Notes under the pieces: model-generated
Database searches by the model: none
The model's input: only the letters and a program-made list of their open reading frames with translations
What the model was told of the DNA's origin: nothing
Translations under genes and position numbers: made by a program
Shown: positions 45,846 through 62,924 of the stretch, one piece after another
How the letters are laid out: every line of letters starts with the position of its first letter
Numbering within the stretch: the stretch's first letter is position 1
Origin: a virus
Taxonomy: Duplodnaviria; Caudoviricetes
IMG/VR virus record: IMGVR_UViG_3300033498_000048
Location: 160,001 to 224,000 of that record
Direction: 5' to 3' (one strand)
DNA: 64,000 nucleotides

Positions 45846-46934
45846 TTATGTACCATCGCTGAAGAATCCAAATATTAAATGATTGGATTCTTCATTGTTT
45901 AAATAATTTTCACGCATTGACATTCTAGTGTCTAAATTTGTTAAATCGTAAAAATAGTCTTGACTTGTTAGCCATGCAAATATAACTAAGGTCATTACAA
46001 TATCATCGTGTTTACCACGTTCAGCTTCATAGGAAGTTCCCTTCTTAATAAACATAGTCAACTCTGTAATTGTATTGTAATCTACTAATTCTAAGGTATC
46101 ACTTTCAATTAGATTTTTTAATGTACTACATCCTATTAATTTGGTCTTTTTAGTTTGTCTTATTCCAACAATACTTGAATCTGTTATTATCGTATCTCCC
46201 TGCTTAGATTTTGATGTTAGCATATTTTCATATTCATATTCATAATACAATATGTTTGCTACTATTGTTCCAACACTATTGGATTCAATTACAATATAAG
46301 CATCATTATACTTTTTCGAGATGTGATATGATTCATCTGCAAACATAAAAGGAACAATTTGATTGTTCCTATAAACAGCAACTTGTTTATATCGCTTCTC
46401 AGTGACATCAATTATTGATATTACAGAATAGTCTTTGCCCATTCCCTCAGCAACATCAATAATTGAAATGTACGAATTACCTTGAATTGGATGCTCATAA
46501 ATGTATAAAGAATCGTTGATAACTTCTAATGGTTGTTTGTGGGTTAATTGTTGTAATTTCTTACCTGATATTAATGTACCAGAACTTCCAAGGAAATTAC
46601 AATTGTGACTGAGTATTCCATTAGTGTAATAAACACTATCTGTTCCAACATCAATTAAATCATACATTTCAATTGGAACATCTATCAGCTCTTTGTCAAT
46701 AACAAAACAACCATCCATATTAGTATCAACAAAATCACCTATAACCAACTCAATTGCCGTTTTTATTCCATCAATGGTAACTAATGGATGATTATCAGAA
46801 CATACCAAGTTAGTTCCATTAGAAAAACTTAACTTGATTTGCCTATCTTTGTTAATTTTATTAATCCCAATAAACGGTTCAAACCCATTAGGTGTTAAAA
46901 CTGTTAATTGTAAGTTGTTTGTTAATGTTGTCAT
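45846..46934 (-). CDS. gp17: terminase large subunit piece C (IntC-2 plus nuclease domain)
   Basis: After SHN|C come CNFLGSSGTLISG, DVAEGMGKDYS, IESN, HDDIVM. Confidence 0.95.
   Translation of the reverse strand: MTTLTNNLQLTVLTPNGFEPFIGINKINKDRQIKLSFSNGTNLVCSDNHPLVTIDGIKTAIELVIGDFVDTNMDGCFVIDKELIDVPIEMYDLIDVGTDSVYYTNGILSHNCNFLGSSGTLISGKKLQQLTHKQPLEVINDSLYIYEHPIQGNSYISIIDVAEGMGKDYSVISIIDVTEKRYKQVAVYRNNQIVPFMFADESYHISKKYNDAYIVIESNSVGTIVANILYYEYEYENMLTSKSKQGDTIITDSSIVGIRQTKKTKLIGCSTLKNLIESDTLELVDYNTITELTMFIKKGTSYEAERGKHDDIVMTLVIFAWLTSQDYFYDLTNLDTRMSMRENYLNNEESNHLIFGFFSDGT
46602..46934 (-). mobile_element. atypical split intein C-fragment 2 (111 aa), AceL-TerL-like
   Basis: VLTPNGF...LVCSDNHPL...MYDLIDV...YYTNGILSHN|C. 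Confidence 0.92.
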
Positions 46935-46949
46935 TATTATTCCATATCG

Positions 46950-48299
46950 TTATATGACATTGCAATTCAATCTATTATTTGTTGGATATACTGAAACCTT
47001 ATCAATAACATGACTATCAATTATTATTGAGTGTATTGTTCTTCCTATAAACGATTGTTTGTTTAGCCTTTCAACATATATTTTAACCCCGTTTTGCGAC
47101 TCGACTGATTTCTTCAATCTGTGTTTTAGTGGACTCTTTAATACCATGCAATCACTCGTAATTCCATTATACAATTCAATTATTTTATTTAATATTTCAC
47201 ATCCAATTATACTTTTACCAACAACTATTGGAATAGTTAAATTTGAATTAAATGCTAAACTAATAGCAGCATCATATATTAAATTGTTTGATATTTCAAA
47301 ATCGCGAGTACAATATTCTGGAGTTTGACTATTGTTAATTAATTGATATAAATCTCCAAATGTAATATTGTTACAAATTGAATTTTCGGATTTAATTATA
47401 ACTTCGGTATTAGCGGAACAACAATCATATTCTTGTGAGAAATTTTGTGTCCCAATATTACTTTCGGTTGTTTGTCTCCACGCTTCATCGCGTTCTGGGT
47501 GGTCATACCACAAATATTTACTCCTAACAAACTCATTTCTACCCTGTTCAGATTCAATCCACAGTTTGTAAAACAAATTCATACCTTTTGGAGTAGACGT
47601 GATTATCACCTTAGTTGTTTTTCCAGATGATATTACTGGGTAGGTTGATTCAAAAAATTCAACATCATTGTCAATATGGGCGAACTCATCACAGTAGAGT
47701 GTTCCAACTGATTTACCCCTGATGGAACTTGATGATGTTGCTGCACTAAAACACTTTGAACCATTCGCCAGTGTGATACTTGTTTTGTTCCAAGTTACAA
47801 CTCCAGGTTTTAAAAACCAAGGCAACTCCTCAAACATCTTACATAAACGGTCTAATATTTCTGCGGAAGTAGCTCCCTTATTTGCTAATATTCCAATCGA
47901 CTTATTACTATTGAATATTGCCTCATATAACAAATAGGCTGCTGCTGTTGTTGTATTGTGACTTACTATTCCATTTGAATAATATTGGTGTGATTCAGAA
48001 TCAACTTCAACATCATACATATTCTCGTATTCAGTTGTATTAGTAATTGATATTACTTTTGATGTACCGTTAATAGTTTTAATCACATCACCAATTATTA
48101 AGTCTTTAACAAATACTTCGGAATTGTATTCTGACATTACTATATGCGTATCTGCACACTCTAATTTTGCTCCACAATCAAACTCAACAACCCATTTTTC
48201 ATACGGAACAGTTTTCATTACATTTGTACAATTTACCCAACCTTCTGGGGTAAATACTTCCCAATCTGTAATTGGAATAACCCTCTCAAACTTCCTCAT
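46950..48299 (-). CDS. gp17: terminase large subunit piece B (IntC-1 + ATPase core + IntN-2 + extra tail)
   Basis: SHN|TTTAAAYLL, ILANK, IRGKSVGTLYCDEFAH, STPKGMN, FSQEYD|CCSANT. Confidence 0.95.
   Translation of the reverse strand: MRKFERVIPITDWEVFTPEGWVNCTNVMKTVPYEKWVVEFDCGAKLECADTHIVMSEYNSEVFVKDLIIGDVIKTINGTSKVISITNTTEYENMYDVEVDSESHQYYSNGIVSHNTTTAAAYLLYEAIFNSNKSIGILANKGATSAEILDRLCKMFEELPWFLKPGVVTWNKTSITLANGSKCFSAATSSSSIRGKSVGTLYCDEFAHIDNDVEFFESTYPVISSGKTTKVIITSTPKGMNLFYKLWIESEQGRNEFVRSKYLWYDHPERDEAWRQTTESNIGTQNFSQEYDCCSANTEVIIKSENSICNNITFGDLYQLINNSQTPEYCTRDFEISNNLIYDAAISLAFNSNLTIPIVVGKSIIGCEILNKIIELYNGITSDCMVLKSPLKHRLKKSVESQNGVKIYVERLNKQSFIGRTIHSIIIDSHVIDKVSVYPTNNRLNCNVI
47334..47423 (-). 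mobile_element. atypical split intein N-fragment 2 (about 30 aa)
   Basis: CCSANTEVIIK...NITFGDLYQLI parallels short TerL-type IntN (C..xT.V...I.DLY). The end coordinate is approximate. Confidence 0.85.
47955..48299 (-). mobile_element. atypical split intein C-fragment 1 (115 aa)
   Basis: EVFTPEGW...LECADTHIV...MYDVEV...YYSNGIVSHN|T. Confidence 0.92.
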
Positions 48300-48837
48300 T
48301 TATGATTCCATTTATCAACTTCAATGTATCACATTGGTCACTAGGTGTGTCATTATTTACTAATATAGTATTAGCAAAATTTGATTTTAATATATTGCGT
48401 ATTTTAGTTTTTCTACCCTTTAAGAATGTTTGATTTTGGTTACTACCTCTATCCAAATACCGTTTTTCCAAGTCTGTTGATTGTAAACATATAATATGTA
48501 AGGTTGTGTTTGCAATCTTAGAATAATACTCGAATAAACTAGATGACGATAACCTATCCCCTTCAAAAATAATTGTTGAATTTGTATTAATATCATCTAT
48601 TATAAATTCTTTAAATACTGGCATTACATTCATAGCCAACTTGTCTGTTCCAGAAAATGTTTCTGTTGGATTAGAGTAATCGCCAACTATTTTAACAACA
48701 CCAATATCATGGTACTTAACCAATTTCATATACTTCTTCATATCGGTTACATCAACGTTCAATGATTCAATTAACCGTTTCATTAAAGATGTTTTCCCAG
48801 TTCCAGGCTCGCCTATTATTGCTATCATTTTTTGCAT
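48286..48837 (-). CDS. P-loop kinase of the 5-hydroxymethyluracil DNA kinase type
   Basis: IGEPGTGKT, FSGTDKL, IIFEGDRL; adjacent to the aGPT-Pplase gene. Confidence 0.75.
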   Translation of the reverse strand: MQKMIAIIGEPGTGKTSLMKRLIESLNVDVTDMKKYMKLVKYHDIGVVKIVGDYSNPTETFSGTDKLAMNVMPVFKEFIIDDINTNSTIIFEGDRLSSSSLFEYYSKIANTTLHIICLQSTDLEKRYLDRGSNQNQTFLKGRKTKIRNILKSNFANTILVNNDTPSDQCDTLKLINGIINEEV

Positions 48838-49973
48838 ACAAATCCCCTAAGTGATTGATTGTTTGTTTTGTAATAAGTATCATTATAATCATTTTTAAAA
48901 CAATCGTGTTCAAAGTTCAACATTACAACTTGACCCGTGTTCCTAAAATGATTTTGTTTGTCCTTGTGTACACCTTTACATCTTGGGTTATATTCAAATA
49001 GTAAATACTCAGGTAAGCAATTATGTCTAATATTCCAGAATAAATCAAAACGTTTATTCCATTTAATTTCAGCATATTTTATTCTATCGTGAAACATATC
49101 ATTATACACATTTGGATAACGTCTATTTTTCCTATACCACGATTTGTAGCAGCACAAGGTTGATTCTAATGTAAAATAATTTACATCATTAATATAATTT
49201 TCTTCCTTGAACCTACCAATACATTCGCTTAACAGTACACCACCTTCAATTGTTAATGCTTCAATAATACCTTTATCATATTTACCATCAAAATCTGGAT
49301 TAGATTGTGAATGCCAATCTAAATCGTCACGCCCCAATACCTTGCACAAACCATTCCTATGTGATTTACTACCATTCAAATCATGTAAAAACAATGAACT
49401 ACAGCAAATATTTAAGCCTATTATTTTCAAATATTCTAAATATGAAAATGTCGATAGTCTCCCGAATAAGTAAAACTTATCAATTACAGTTTTCCATACT
49501 GTATCAAAATTATCAAATTGGTTGTCGGTATTGCACATTGATGTGAAAAAATTATGTTGAGTATCGTATTTAGAGATTATTTCTTTATAATTTAGAATCA
49601 TATTCTCTAATTTATTTTTTACATATCTCCTATCTGTATCCCAACCAAACTTAGTATAGTTTTCTCTGAAAAAAACAGAAAATTTGTCAATATCGAGTGT
49701 GTTAAAATCACTAAAATTCTCAAACAAAATCCATGATGTAATAATATTTTGACAACAACCATTTAAAAACACCAACCAATATTGCTGCTCTATATTTAAA
49801 TTGTGTATTTTAATTAACTCTGGAATGACATAATACACTGCCCCAGGGTGTGATTTATATTTTAAATGGAATTGATAAAACCTAATAAATGTTTCACGCC
49901 GATATTTGTGTTCCCTGAAATCAGAACCAACAACCAAGTTTGAATCATTGTTGCTGTTAATTTTAAATACCAT
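48825..49973 (-). CDS. aGPT-Pplase2 / amino acid:DNA transferase-like protein
   Basis: DTDRRY, FGRLSTFSYLEYL, SKSHRNGL, FTLESTLCCYK, RRYPNVY. Confidence 0.8.
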   Translation of the reverse strand: MVFKINSNNDSNLVVGSDFREHKYRRETFIRFYQFHLKYKSHPGAVYYVIPELIKIHNLNIEQQYWLVFLNGCCQNIITSWILFENFSDFNTLDIDKFSVFFRENYTKFGWDTDRRYVKNKLENMILNYKEIISKYDTQHNFFTSMCNTDNQFDNFDTVWKTVIDKFYLFGRLSTFSYLEYLKIIGLNICCSSLFLHDLNGSKSHRNGLCKVLGRDDLDWHSQSNPDFDGKYDKGIIEALTIEGGVLLSECIGRFKEENYINDVNYFTLESTLCCYKSWYRKNRRYPNVYNDMFHDRIKYAEIKWNKRFDLFWNIRHNCLPEYLLFEYNPRCKGVHKDKQNHFRNTGQVVMLNFEHDCFKNDYNDTYYKTNNQSLRGFVCKK

Positions 49974-51375
49974 AATTTGTTCCTGTAAAATATTGTAATA
50001 TAGGTTTATGATATTGCTCTAACCAATCTTTGCCATTATCTTTAGTTAGTAAGAACTCATACCACTCCCTAGCACATTCATAATTACCATCTTTTTCTAT
50101 TATATTACCAAAAGAATTTGTTCCAACTCCATTCCAACCTTTGATATTTGAATTGTTTTTCCTCAACTCAACAAATTCTTTTCGGGCTTGCTCATATTCA
50201 TATGTGCCTAGTGATAACATCCCTTCATGTAAAAATGCTATCACACTAACACGTTCAGCATCGGGTTCATGTAACACTATCTCAGTATTACCATGTAAGC
50301 CTTGCATATTATTGATTAATAGTAAATCGCGGGGTCTAATATCAATTGCATATCCAATTTCAGGTAATACTAAATGTCCACCAGAATAATTATCATTTTT
50401 GGATAATACACATAAATTAGCAAAACCTTGTTCCATGTTTGCTGGGTCATAATGTGCTGAGGTTCTGAAATTTTTATTTACAGTAATAGTGGTAAATGGT
50501 GTGTTAGGTACAATGAACTTATTATCTATTTTATCACAAGCTGCTAGTTGATTAGCATACCTAATTGGTAATAACTCTTTGAATAATTGTGCCAGCCTTT
50601 CTAAAAATGGAAAAGATAATTTAAATTTTTCATAGTTGTTTTTTGTGTATGCCGTTTCACGCCCAAACGGAATCCTTGGGTATCTATCATAATATCCAGC
50701 AACCCCAGAGTTTACAAAGTTTGCGTATATTGTTTTTGATATGTACGATTTAACCAATTTACAATTATCTACAATAGTTGTAAATTCATATTGTCCAGAC
50801 TTAATTGTACTAATTAATTCAAAATACCACAATTCAAAATTAAAATTATTTATAATAACTTTATTAGATATGTAAACTTTATCGGTATATTCTGGTTCAC
50901 TTTTATACACCTCAAATATTGATTCCAACTGTAATATTGTTTCAGTTGTAATTCTTTTACAATTAATTAAAATATCCAGTATAGAAAGTTCTTGTTTTGT
51001 TGCTCTGACCCTATTACCATGTAATCTAGTGTTTATTTTTCCACTAGCATTACCTCGATTATCTGTTGGAACTGCTGCGTCAGCCAACCCATCATACCCA
51101 GATTCAACTTCAGATTGAGTGAATGCGTTTTTTCTAAACTTGAATAGTATGTATTTTTCTGGATTTGAATTAACACACCTAATACAATCATCTTTTGTTT
51201 GGCAGTTATTACCTTTAGCATATTTTAATAACCCTCCAGGGTTACAAGAATCATATAGATATAAGTCGGTATCTTCAGTTATTAATGTGTGGTATGATGT
51301 ATCATCTAACCACTCCCTAACCAATTCTTGTTTGTTAGTATAATCTTTAATTGTTAAAACTATTTGTTTAACCAC
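49963..51375 (-). CDS. TET/JBP-family 2OG-Fe(II) dioxygenase
   Basis: TPFTTITVNKNFRTSAHYD (HxD), GGHLVLPE, LHGNT, RVSVIAF; GATAAATA at 51409-51416. Confidence 0.85.
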   Translation of the reverse strand: MVKQIVLTIKDYTNKQELVREWLDDTSYHTLITEDTDLYLYDSCNPGGLLKYAKGNNCQTKDDCIRCVNSNPEKYILFKFRKNAFTQSEVESGYDGLADAAVPTDNRGNASGKINTRLHGNRVRATKQELSILDILINCKRITTETILQLESIFEVYKSEPEYTDKVYISNKVIINNFNFELWYFELISTIKSGQYEFTTIVDNCKLVKSYISKTIYANFVNSGVAGYYDRYPRIPFGRETAYTKNNYEKFKLSFPFLERLAQLFKELLPIRYANQLAACDKIDNKFIVPNTPFTTITVNKNFRTSAHYDPANMEQGFANLCVLSKNDNYSGGHLVLPEIGYAIDIRPRDLLLINNMQGLHGNTEIVLHEPDAERVSVIAFLHEGMLSLGTYEYEQARKEFVELRKNNSNIKGWNGVGTNSFGNIIEKDGNYECAREWYEFLLTKDNGKDWLEQYHKPILQYFTGTNYGI

Positions 51376-58716: not shown

Positions 58717-60309
58717 ATGTCATTTAGTACATTTAAAGGTTTTTTAAAAGAAGGTAGAGTTTCGTTATATGAAGCAATTAGGTTGGGGGATTTCAACAAA
58801 GCTTCTGTAATAATTGGCAAATACATAACACGGACAGTTTGTAAAACGTTTTGTTTACCCGAACCAGAGGTTGTTAAAAGTCGTGGAAAAGAATACATTG
58901 GAATTAGATATTTATTAGATGATGATAGGTCAATCAGATTAAATTGGCTTTCATCTATATCAGCAGCATCTAATCTAGTATCATTCGATTACTGGGATGG
59001 TAGTGGAGCAAAACAATTATTTCCGTCCCATCACATTGAGTTTGATGTAGACCAACAACGAACCCTAGTTAAATCATTGCCATTTATTAAAGATTTTTTG
59101 AATGGAAAGATTAAAGATAAGTCTGGATATTATGTTGATGATGATACTCTATCTGAATCACATAAAATAATTGATACTACGTTTTTGTCGGAGGCTGTAG
59201 TAACAGAAGATGATATTGTATATTCTATAAAAGGTATTATTGATGGATTATCACAAGGTGAAGACTTCTACAAACAATGCAAATCTCCAGATAGGTTGAA
59301 GTTGTATGGTAAGAATATGCGGAAAGTACAGGGGGCAATTAGAGAACTATATCCAATATTTTCCAAGTCTAAATATCCAATTGATAAACTATCAGATATT
59401 GATGTTAATTTGATATTAGATTCTGTTTTGGGTAGAAATGGTAAATCTACAACTGACGGAATAGATTTAATTAAATTTGATGTAACCCCTGGAACGCCAG
59501 AGGTTAGAGTTCCACAAGATAGTACATTAACCGATGTTGAAATTGAAAGAATCTCATATGAAGACCAATTAGAAGATTTAACAACATCAATTGGCTTACT
59601 ATTGGCAGGAGCATCACACGGATTGTTTATTACTGGCAGAGGTGGTACTGGTAAATCTGTTACTGTCAAACAAGCCTTGAATAATAATGGATTACAAGAA
59701 GGTGATGGTTATGTCAAGTTGAAAACAACTGCTACAACAGTTGGTATATATCAATTGTTATACAAATATCGCGACTCTGTGTTATTGTTTGATGATTCAG
59801 ATTCAATATTTACTGACCAAGCAACACGAAACATTTTTAAGGCTGCTACTGAGTCTGGTTCAGAAAAAAGAATGTTAATGTGGGACAAAAAATCTAGTGA
59901 TATTGTTGATTCTGATATATACGATGAAGATGACCCAGAATTTGATAGCAAATATCCAAATCGGTATGAATTTACTGGAAAAATAATATTCATATCAAAC
60001 CTTGAAATGGACAAAGTTGACCCAGATGGTGCATTGCGTACCAGAGGTAATATTTTCAATATATCGGCAACTAATGAAGAGATATATGAAAAGGCTGCAA
60101 AGATTATTATGTTCATTCCGTTGCGAGTTAATTACAATTTAGACAAACCAAAACGGTTAGAGATTCTTGAAGCTTTTGCTGCAAAAAAACGTATGGTAGA
60201 TACAGCAGACCTTAGAACATTTGAGCGAGCGTTAAATGATTCTGCTGCAATCTTATTGCAAGGTGGAGATGATAGTAAATGGAAAACGTGGATAATTAGA
60301 TACTGTTAA
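58717..60309 (+). CDS. AAA+ ATPase with capsid-targeting-like N-terminus
   Basis: MSFSTFKGFLKE; GRGGTGKS, LLFDDSD, IIFISN, ALRTR; TATAAATA at 58676-58683. Confidence 0.8.
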   Translation: MSFSTFKGFLKEGRVSLYEAIRLGDFNKASVIIGKYITRTVCKTFCLPEPEVVKSRGKEYIGIRYLLDDDRSIRLNWLSSISAASNLVSFDYWDGSGAKQLFPSHHIEFDVDQQRTLVKSLPFIKDFLNGKIKDKSGYYVDDDTLSESHKIIDTTFLSEAVVTEDDIVYSIKGIIDGLSQGEDFYKQCKSPDRLKLYGKNMRKVQGAIRELYPIFSKSKYPIDKLSDIDVNLILDSVLGRNGKSTTDGIDLIKFDVTPGTPEVRVPQDSTLTDVEIERISYEDQLEDLTTSIGLLLAGASHGLFITGRGGTGKSVTVKQALNNNGLQEGDGYVKLKTTATTVGIYQLLYKYRDSVLLFDDSDSIFTDQATRNIFKAATESGSEKRMLMWDKKSSDIVDSDIYDEDDPEFDSKYPNRYEFTGKIIFISNLEMDKVDPDGALRTRGNIFNISATNEEIYEKAAKIIMFIPLRVNYNLDKPKRLEILEAFAAKKRMVDTADLRTFERALNDSAAILLQGGDDSKWKTWIIRYC

Positions 60310-62205: not shown

Positions 62206-62299
62206 TACTTAGATTGAACAAATCTACAATTGTAATTTCCTCAATGGTATTTGTAGATTTGTTCCTGATTGTTAGTTTTGTTTCTGGTGACACACATTT
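62177..62299 (-). CDS. gp17: terminase piece A exon 2: Walker A Lys plus 39-aa split intein N-fragment 1
   Basis: Not in the ORF track. Manual translation K|CVSPETKLTIRNKSTNTIEEITIVDLFNLSIKNGQGIST*. Confidence 0.9.
   Translation of the reverse strand, partial: KCVSPETKLTIRNKSTNTIEEITIVDLFNLSIKNGQGIST
62216..62264. other. 14-bp perfect inverted repeat inside the IntN-1 coding sequence
   Basis: GAACAAATCTACAA / TTGTAGATTTGTTC, just past the stop of the opposite-strand endonuclease. Confidence 0.7.
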
Positions 62300-62609
62300 C
62301 AATATCTTCAGTGATATTCGCTAAATATCACCCGTTTATTAGACTGCTTTAGCTTTTCGCTAAATGTTGAGACTATATCTTAGTGTTTAATAAACACCCC
62401 TAATGTTTCGAGATTGCTTAATCCCTACGGCATATTGCCTAGTCGTTGAACTGCTTCCAGTGTGGTTACATTCCACTTAGGAAACTAGCTGCTGATTTAC
62501 CAATTCTTGATATTGTCACTGTGTTGTATTATTTCTAATACAATTGAGTAATCAAGACTCTAAGGTTGTTCCAGCAATTAAAAAGGTTTTACATGGGCAA
62601 GTTCATCCC
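62300..62609 (-). ncRNA. group I self-splicing intron (310 nt, no ORF) in the terminase gene
   Basis: P AATTGCTGGAA, Q AATCAGCAG, R GTTCAACGACTA and S AAGATATAGTCT in order. P1 AUGGGU/GCCCAU has a U-G pair at the 5' splice site; terminal G. Splicing gives in-frame RQMG|K. Confidence 0.93.
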
Positions 62610-62924
62610 ACCCATTTGTCTTGATAGTAAACATAAATTAAATCTATTTTCCTGGAAAGATTTAATCATTTTTTGTTGATATGGATATAATTTAAATTTA
62701 ACTAAACCTTCATCTAAGTTTACGATATAGACATAGTTTTCAATAAAGTAAATTATGTCAGTGGCACATTTGTAAATTTCCCTAATTTGGTCTTCAGTGT
62801 ATGATAATAGAGTTCCAGCCTTCATAAGTTTTGTATTTCCGTTGTAACAAAACTTATCTTTGTTTAGTGTTGGGGAATCTTCTACTGTTTTATGTGTGTT
62901 TATAGGAACTATTTGAGTTTCCAT
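62610..62924 (-). CDS. gp17: terminase large subunit piece A exon 1
   Basis: YNGNTKL, EIYKCATDIIYFIENYVYIVNLDEGLVKFKLYPYQ...RFNLCLLSRQMG; ATG at 62924 after a GGAG SD. Confidence 0.93.

Follow-up and report, generated by a model that had tools for sequence, protein, structure and literature searches.

A group I intron one codon upstream of a split intein in the Walker A loop of a large phage terminase gene

Introduction

How does a phage make an essential enzyme when the codons for its most conserved loop are broken, three nucleotides apart, by an RNA element and a protein element? The question is raised by the large terminase gene (terL) in a 64,000-nucleotide stretch of DNA, here called the window, which comprises bases 160001-224000 of the 305,782-bp IMG/VR virus record IMGVR_UViG_3300033498_000048. 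The record, which has direct terminal repeats and a completeness rating of 100%, represents a complete 305.8-kb T4-like phage, in which the single-copy terL is interrupted after the Gly codon, and before the Lys codon, of Walker A. A preliminary description, made from the letters of the window, had placed there a group I intron, a single Lys codon and then the first Cys of an intein, and every detail that it gave of the intron, its 5' and 3' boundaries, the Lys codon, Cys1 and the position in the P-loop is present in the sequence. The best joint explanation of the data below is that 62300-62609, on the minus strand that carries all the intron and terL features, is probably a working group I intron without an open reading frame (ORF), lying beside a split intein whose cassette is old and which the intron joined later.

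Results

Exon 1 matches the PHROG terminase large subunit family phrog_5989 (E value 2e-25) and ends ...AGA CAA ATG GGT, with the final T at 62610. The intron then runs from 62609 to 62300, its first bases being GGGAUGAAC and its last GAUAUUG, with the terminal G at 62300, and exon 2 consists of AAA (Lys, 62299-62297), TGT (Cys1, 62296-62294), 38 further codons and a TAA stop (62179-62177). Joining of the exons gives a 145-residue ORF, ...SRQMGK-CVSPETKL...IST, in a frame that matches the relatives, and only the joining of GGT to AAA restores SRQxGK, which is contiguous in about 110 of these. The unspliced frame reads SRQMG-GMNLPM and stops six codons into the intron, as had been described; because of this stop, and because exon 2 offers only a TTG without a clear ribosome-binding site, the accompanying proposal that splicing gates production of the N-terminal intein fragment (IntN1) is supported in so far as IntN1 can be made as a fusion to the N-extein only after RNA splicing.

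The covariance-model search put forward in the preliminary description as a check on the intron gave a match to Rfam RF00028 (Intron_gpI) of 56.1 bits, against a gathering score of 50, with an E value of 1.7e-13 in a local search, and a search of the whole 306-kb genome returned the same match (E value 1.7e-14) and no second. The Rfam alignment places P1 wrongly into the exon, and its span of 62347-62649 is therefore not the true boundary. Helix mapping bore out the 310-nt length, the P, Q, R and S elements and the U.G pair of P1, in which the last U of the exon faces a G of the guide at the 5' splice site (AUGGGU/GGG against CUUGCCCAU). The set of helices from P1 to P9.1 is complete, P8 being followed by P9 and a 9-bp P9.1, and the folding z-score of the intron is -3.58, none of 100 shuffled sequences folding as well. 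Subgroup IA introns carry P7.1 and P7.2 between the 5' strand of P7 and the 3' strand of P3, and the architecture of this intron resembles that subgroup in having two hairpins (62439-62429 and 62425-62410) at that position, a likeness judged by their placement. The longest stop-free stretch within the intron is 33 codons, and it therefore encodes no endonuclease. Parts of the core match, by blastn against a phage collection, intron-bearing regions of large (jumbo) phages of Staphylococcus, Pseudomonas and Bacillus, while no second copy or paralogue of the intron was found elsewhere in the 306-kb genome and an exact 23-mer from the S-P9 region had no match in viral contigs.

Relatives were sought by a protein search with the unspliced 119-residue ORF, and two truncated ones, P0005 and P0006, end at the same Gly. 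P0005 is 84% identical to the exon 1 protein, and a homologous intron, 305 nt long, lies at the same place, between GGT and AAA TGT, in its contigs L083 and L084. The L083 intron scores 52.4 bits in Rfam, shares 263 of 310 positions with the window intron (85%) and has an identical P1 guide sequence; the two differ in length in the P1 loop, at the tip of P6 and in the P8 loop. RNAalifold found four compensatory pairs between them, and the hand-curated helices, 82 pairs in all, include five compensatory changes, six one-sided changes and two broken pairs, both in distal P5c. The covariation support is modest because there are only two distinct intron sequences. P0006 has an N-extein 79% identical to that of the window, and its read-through peptide encodes the same guide sequence in another frame. 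At 98-100% identity, the intron is also covered by contigs of four further metagenome runs that come from different studies; all these contigs are intron-bearing, and no intron-less joint was found among the contigs of these four DNA runs.

A 20-mer made up of the guide, the joining segment and the 5' strand of P3 gave six chance matches in metagenome contigs and one partial lead, contig L098 (2068-3330). There an insert interrupts a capsid-like gene after ...CAA TTA ATG GGT, and its first 30 nt have the CTTGCCCATGTAAAACCTTTT guide module in common with the window intron. This insert contains an antisense ORF with LAGLIDADG motifs; it has no Rfam intron match and no S element, and is no more than a candidate relative of the window intron.

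Several observations weigh against a working intron beside an old intein, and against the account of their adjacency given below. The default-filter Rfam scan of the whole window at the gathering threshold gave no match, although this is a filter artefact, as the local and genome searches recover the intron. A P10 pairing with the 3' exon was sought by inspection and none was convincing; no RNA run was found to contain the locus, so that splicing is a prediction from sequence; distal P5c of the L083 intron has two U.U mismatches, and the covariation is drawn from just two distinct sequences. From the TTG immediately before the Lys codon (62302-62300), unspliced RNA could in principle be translated into an MK-IntN1 peptide, and incidental adjacency of the two elements is an argument from parsimony. 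The indistinct P10, the want of an RNA run and the assembly of the genome from a metagenome would suit a decayed, non-splicing relic, in which case piece 1 would be a dead fragment and the virus either defective or packaging with a TerL that lacks the N-terminal 106 residues. We regard this as very unlikely, since the intact core scores above the Rfam threshold, the substitutions relative to L083 keep pairing, exon 1 is 84% identical at the protein level between lineages and free of stops, the same allele occurs in several independent metagenomes, and the SRQxG segment of Walker A has no other source in the genome.

The in-frame TTG, which gives a 41-residue ORF, could alternatively mean that there is no RNA splicing at all, and that a 111-residue N-terminal protein ending GMNLPM and a separate MK-IntN1 are made, the N-domain acting non-covalently; a similar MGK-IntN mini-ORF follows a 41-nt insert in contigs L087 and L088, described below. 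Such an arrangement would cut the P-loop between G and K onto two chains, the TTG has no recognisable ribosome-binding site before it, and the intervening 310 nt are a bona fide group I intron, which together make this scarcely credible.

On the reading that we prefer, of an intron that splices, self-splicing initiated by guanosine triphosphate (GTP) would join GGT to AAA, with the U.G pair of P1 defining the 5' site and the terminal G (62300) the 3' site. The spliced message would then be translated into a 145-residue precursor, comprising the N-extein (105 residues), the Lys and IntN1 (39 residues), and IntN1 would pair with the C-terminal intein fragment (IntC1) that heads a second polypeptide encoded 14 kb away, trans-splicing restoring SRQMGK-TTT. 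A second atypically split intein would add the third piece at QEYD-CNFLGSS, to yield a mature TerL of 534 residues.

The protein side of this scheme is drawn from a terL that consists of three cistrons with two split inteins at their junctions, IntN1 and IntC1 lying about 14 kb apart on the minus strand (Table 1). Piece 2 (48299 to 46950) encodes IntC1, extein 2, the QEYD junction and IntN2, and piece 3 (46934 to 45846) encodes IntC2 and extein 3. IntN1 is a short N-fragment of 39 residues with Cys1, a CxxxxTxL pattern and block A only, and IntC1 a long C-fragment of 115 residues with CADTH, blocks F and G, the ending ...YYSNGIVSHN and Thr at +1, the +1 residue of intein 2 being Cys. With the RF00028 match, the IntN1 sequence bears out the earlier claim that a group I intron and an intein N-fragment lie 3 nt apart within the Walker A codons. 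Thr116 of piece 2 is aligned by HMMER to T167 of T4 gp17, and ligation would therefore restore SRQMGK-TTT, a gp17-type Walker A. Both inteins are atypically split, of the kind with a short IntN and a long IntC, and intein 1, a split mini-intein, encodes no endonuclease; the two are predicted to trans-splice because their catalytic residues are intact and terL is single-copy. Indeed the genome has one Terminase_6N match, one Terminase_6C match and one copy of the N-extein, and the phage therefore depends on the three-piece terL. Exon 2 with IntN1, used alone, found no match in a word-based protein search, in a full HMMER scan of 1.84 billion representatives or in PDB, because forty residues are too short.

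Table 1. Positions of the intron, the terL pieces and neighbouring features in the window.
Feature	Position	Strand	Evidence or remarks
Group I intron, 310 nt, no ORF	62300..62609	-	RF00028 match, helix mapping, homologue in L083/L084
terL piece 1, exon 1	62610..62924	-	105 codons, N-terminal part of T4 gp17-type large terminase, ends SRQMG (GGT)
Walker A (GK) Lys codon, sole extein codon of exon 2	62297..62299	-	corresponds to K166 of T4 gp17 by alignment
P1 helix	62593..62615	-	exon AUGGGU and intron GGG pair with internal guide CUUGCCCAU; U 62610 pairs with G 62598
P4-P6 domain	62488..62579	-	P element 62579-62569, long P5abc arm with GAAA tetraloop, Q element 62497-62488
Catalytic core around P7	62371..62451	-	R 62451-62440, P7.1 62439-62429, P7.2 62425-62410, P3 3' strand, P8 62397-62383, S 62381-62371
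IntN1, 39 residues and stop codon	62177..62296	-	Cys1, block A only; aligned with IntN fragments of relatives
Inverted repeat, perfect, 14 bp, 21-nt loop	62216..62264		within IntN1 codons, just beyond the stop of the converging nuclease gene
Free-standing homing-endonuclease-like gene, 377 residues	61072..62205	+	Ros/MucR-type zinc fingers, possible T5orf172/GIY-YIG-like C-terminal domain
IntC1, 115 residues	47955..48299	-	block B CADTH, ends GIVSHN; PDB CatC E value 3.5e-5, VidaL E value 8e-6
terL extein 2, 177 residues, ATPase core	47424..47954	-	starts TTTAAAYLL; Terminase_6N E value 2.7e-23; T4 gp17 structure sequences E value 4e-36
IntN2 (starts CCSANTEV), tail of about 120 residues, stop	46950..47423	-	no Pfam family for tail
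IntC2, 111 residues	46602..46934	-	block B CSDNH, ends GILSHN
terL extein 3, 251 residues, nuclease domain	45846..46601	-	starts CNFLGSSGTL; Terminase_6C E value 1.4e-16

The nuclease gene next to the intron converges on exon 2, with an overlap of 29 nt, and lies 95 bp from the intron 3' end, on the strand opposite to terL and with 12.8 kb of other genes between it and IntC1. Members of its family have a common N-terminal zinc-finger region (Ros/MucR-like) and a C-terminal domain that is either T5orf172/MUG113 (GIY-YIG superfamily) or DUF559/Vsr-like, and swapped nuclease domains on a shared N-terminus are typical of homing endonucleases. The window protein itself has no Pfam match to T5orf172 or MUG113, and it is its full-length homologues (31-37% identical) that match (E value 1e-6). 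An ESM Atlas lead for it scores 0.82; its AlphaFold model is poor (predicted local distance difference test score 62), a Foldseek search against PDB found no match, and PHROGs has no family for it. In L083 the gene is cut down to a 63-residue remnant. The 14-bp inverted repeat just beyond its stop may serve the nuclease transcript as a 3' hairpin; it has not been conserved in L083, in which the gene is decayed.

An IMG/VR search with the nuclease family gave 36 loci (L099-L134), about 33 of which carry, on one strand, a terL N-extein ending ...RQxG-K-Cys1 with its IntN, the nuclease gene (GIY-YIG-superfamily or Vsr-like), IntC1 and extein 2, the intein being at the Walker A site between GK and T. 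The G, K and Cys1 codons are contiguous in all of these, and none has the intron. As the nuclease family thus sits between IntN and IntC in about 33 intron-less loci, the nuclease belongs with the intein and not with the intron; in the intron-bearing sublineage its gene is inverted, and in the window piece 2 is also displaced, by 14 kb. Contig L085 (N-extein 54% identical) has both split inteins in three adjacent genes, without the nuclease gene and without the intron; L087 and L088 (N-extein 53% identical) likewise have the RQxG-K-Cys1 split intein and lack the intron. In about 76 of 80 other relatives RQxGK[ST] is unbroken.

Divergence between the window and L085 is similar for intein (IntC1 46% identity) and extein (N-extein 54%), the site-1 inteins of the two being 46% identical and site 1 and site 2 inteins 30-35%, and the intron is confined to alleles with N-exteins at least 79% identical. 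The intein cassette is therefore old, and the intron entered an allele that already bore it. This comparative distribution indicates that the intein came first and the intron later, in one recent sublineage.

Other interruptions were seen at or near this site. A contiguous, full-length LAGLIDADG intein lies in the same terL Walker A loop in L037 (3226-4900; SRQSGKDL-C...THN-SESSCAYLF) and also in L043-L045, at the split-intein site or no more than two codons from it. Contigs L087 (4682-4937, minus strand) and L088 (1168-1700, minus strand) share with the window the split-intein site and the inversion of the nuclease gene, and have a 41-nt insert in place of the intron; this contains a 13-bp perfect hairpin and in-frame TAA TAA, and lies between the SRQ and MGK codons, 6 nt upstream of the intron site. 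Deletion of exactly these 41 nt restores SRQMGKC. The insert could possibly mark two cistrons, a bypass or a mini-element; for translational bypass or frameshifting, no matched take-off and landing codons that would restore SRQMGK were found. In L009 (3340-3900) a terL relative has an intact SRQMGKT and loses its frame after ...PLWLKP in an AT-rich stretch, which may be another insertion or an intron at a different site.

The preliminary description had further supposed that the intron and the intein would each disrupt the endonuclease target of the other. This has no support, because neither element encodes an endonuclease and the nuclease close by is associated with the intein. The most probable cause of the 3-nt spacing is that both types of element prefer those codons of the gene that are most conserved, without any functional coupling between the two, and an RNA-guided route of arrival of the intron is conceivable because the guide needs only AUGGGU. 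The adjacency could instead have been selected, through homing-site immunity, in that the intron splits the left half of the Walker A homing site, or because GTP-dependent splicing times the supply of IntN1 against that of IntC1. The endonucleases aimed at the P-loop would, for immunity, be the resident T5orf172-type nuclease or the LAGLIDADG inteins of relatives, and the free-standing nuclease gene is indeed only 95 bp from the intron 3' end, the same P-loop is occupied by a full-length LAGLIDADG intein in L037 and L043-L045, and collaborative homing of ORF-less introns with free-standing endonucleases is documented (PMC3984707). Moreover, L087/L088, the sole other lineage with an inverted nuclease gene, have a different insert that breaks the same codons 6 nt upstream. 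Against this, the nuclease family occurs in about 33 intron-less alleles, where the intein cassette alone already interrupts the site, and in the intron-bearing L083 the nuclease gene has decayed to its 63-residue remnant. We consider such coupling of the RNA and protein elements, by immunity or by GTP metering of IntN1, unlikely. If immunity did apply, the 41-nt hairpin insert of L087/L088 would be an independent solution to the same problem; if metering did, the three-piece terminase would assemble only late in infection or when energy is plentiful.

Three further observations concern neighbouring or related genes. The tail of about 120 residues after IntN2 (46953-47330, minus strand) has no family match, the IntN2 of L085 being 30 residues long and without a tail. 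Directly upstream of piece 2 (48286-51375, minus strand) are genes for a Tet/JBP dioxygenase, an amino acid:DNA transferase (ADDT) and a P-loop protein, a cluster that looks like a DNA hypermodification module. Lastly, in L083 (8475-9197, minus strand) a homologue of the 530-residue AAA-type ATPase of the window (58717-60309, plus strand) has an intein C-terminus, ...GICHHN, directly before its P-loop TGKT; the P-loop of the window protein, GRGGTGKS, is uninterrupted.

Discussion

The closest known arrangement is the 'fractured' terminase gene, in which an atypically split intein flanks a free-standing endonuclease at a metagenomic GOS locus (Dassa et al. 2009, PMC2677866). The host gene there, as in the window, is the gp17-type TerL of myoviruses, and a short IntN with block A is again paired with a long IntC with blocks B, F and G. 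The nuclease types between the halves in the relatives of the window, GIY-YIG and Vsr-like, are also the two types of that study (PMC2677866), and the L099-L134 loci show the fractured terL to be far more widespread than was evident in 2009, when a single GOS locus was described. About 33 relatives have the defining layout, with the endonuclease directly between the halves and on the same strand, whereas the window does not. Here a group I intron lies 3 nt upstream of the first codon of the intein, the nuclease gene is inverted, at least 12 genes and a distance of 14 kb separate the intein halves, and one gene has two such inteins. The window has the appearance of a rearranged descendant of that layout and may be compared to the 'dislocated' stage in the model of that study (PMC2677866). 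GOS-TerL, AceL-TerL, Cat and VidaL are atypical split inteins with published IntN fragments of 25-37 residues, and IntC1 of the window is homologous in sequence to CatC and VidaL. The +1 residue of intein 1 is Thr, whereas that of GOS-TerL and AceL-TerL in published tables is Cys; because of this difference, intein 1 may occupy a different site from these, and intein 2, with its Cys+1, may be their allele.

Dependence on both kinds of splicing has a precedent in bnrdE/bnrdF of the Bacillus prophage SPbeta, where there are introns and an intein and RNA and protein splicing are both needed for one enzyme. The SPbeta elements occupy different sites, with a contiguous intein that splices in cis, whereas the window has only 3 nt between them and a split intein that would act in trans. 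Nor is an intron in terL unprecedented, as the terL of Lactobacillus phage LL-H carries one of group I. Others are described in TerL of the Bastillevirinae phage SIOphi (PMC11878797) and in the Jug jumbo phages (PMC12880540), and these resemble the window in being self-splicing group I introns in the large terminase gene of large phages, but none is reported one codon from an intein junction. Likewise, the ORF-less psbA intron of cyanophage S-PM2, which undergoes collaborative homing with F-CphI (PMC6083498; review PMC3984707), shares with the window a free-standing nuclease gene less than about 100 bp away; the window differs in that its nuclease family is tied to the split intein in about 33 intron-less loci and shows no sign of targeting the intron site. 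Both types of element are thus already well known and the locus presents no new kind; it is for their stacking this close that the literature searched gave no precedent, as no paper there describes an intron a single codon away from an intein junction, or an exon made up of a single extein codon and an intein fragment.

The locus has implications both for the phage and for the elements that it carries. To restore an essential, single-copy enzyme, the phage is predicted to need RNA splicing once and protein trans-splicing twice, and the RNA and protein elements stacked in the most conserved loop of the ATPase form a natural case of selfish elements at one hot spot. The order of invasion can be read from three classes of allele, namely those without interruption (about 110), those that carry just the intein and nuclease cassette (about 33) and those of the one sublineage that has the intron as well. 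The locus could also serve to test whether a homing site shared by introns and intein cassettes is contested or protected by them. The two inteins, which occur together in nature, are in addition atypical split inteins with short N-fragments, and such inteins are of value for protein labelling.

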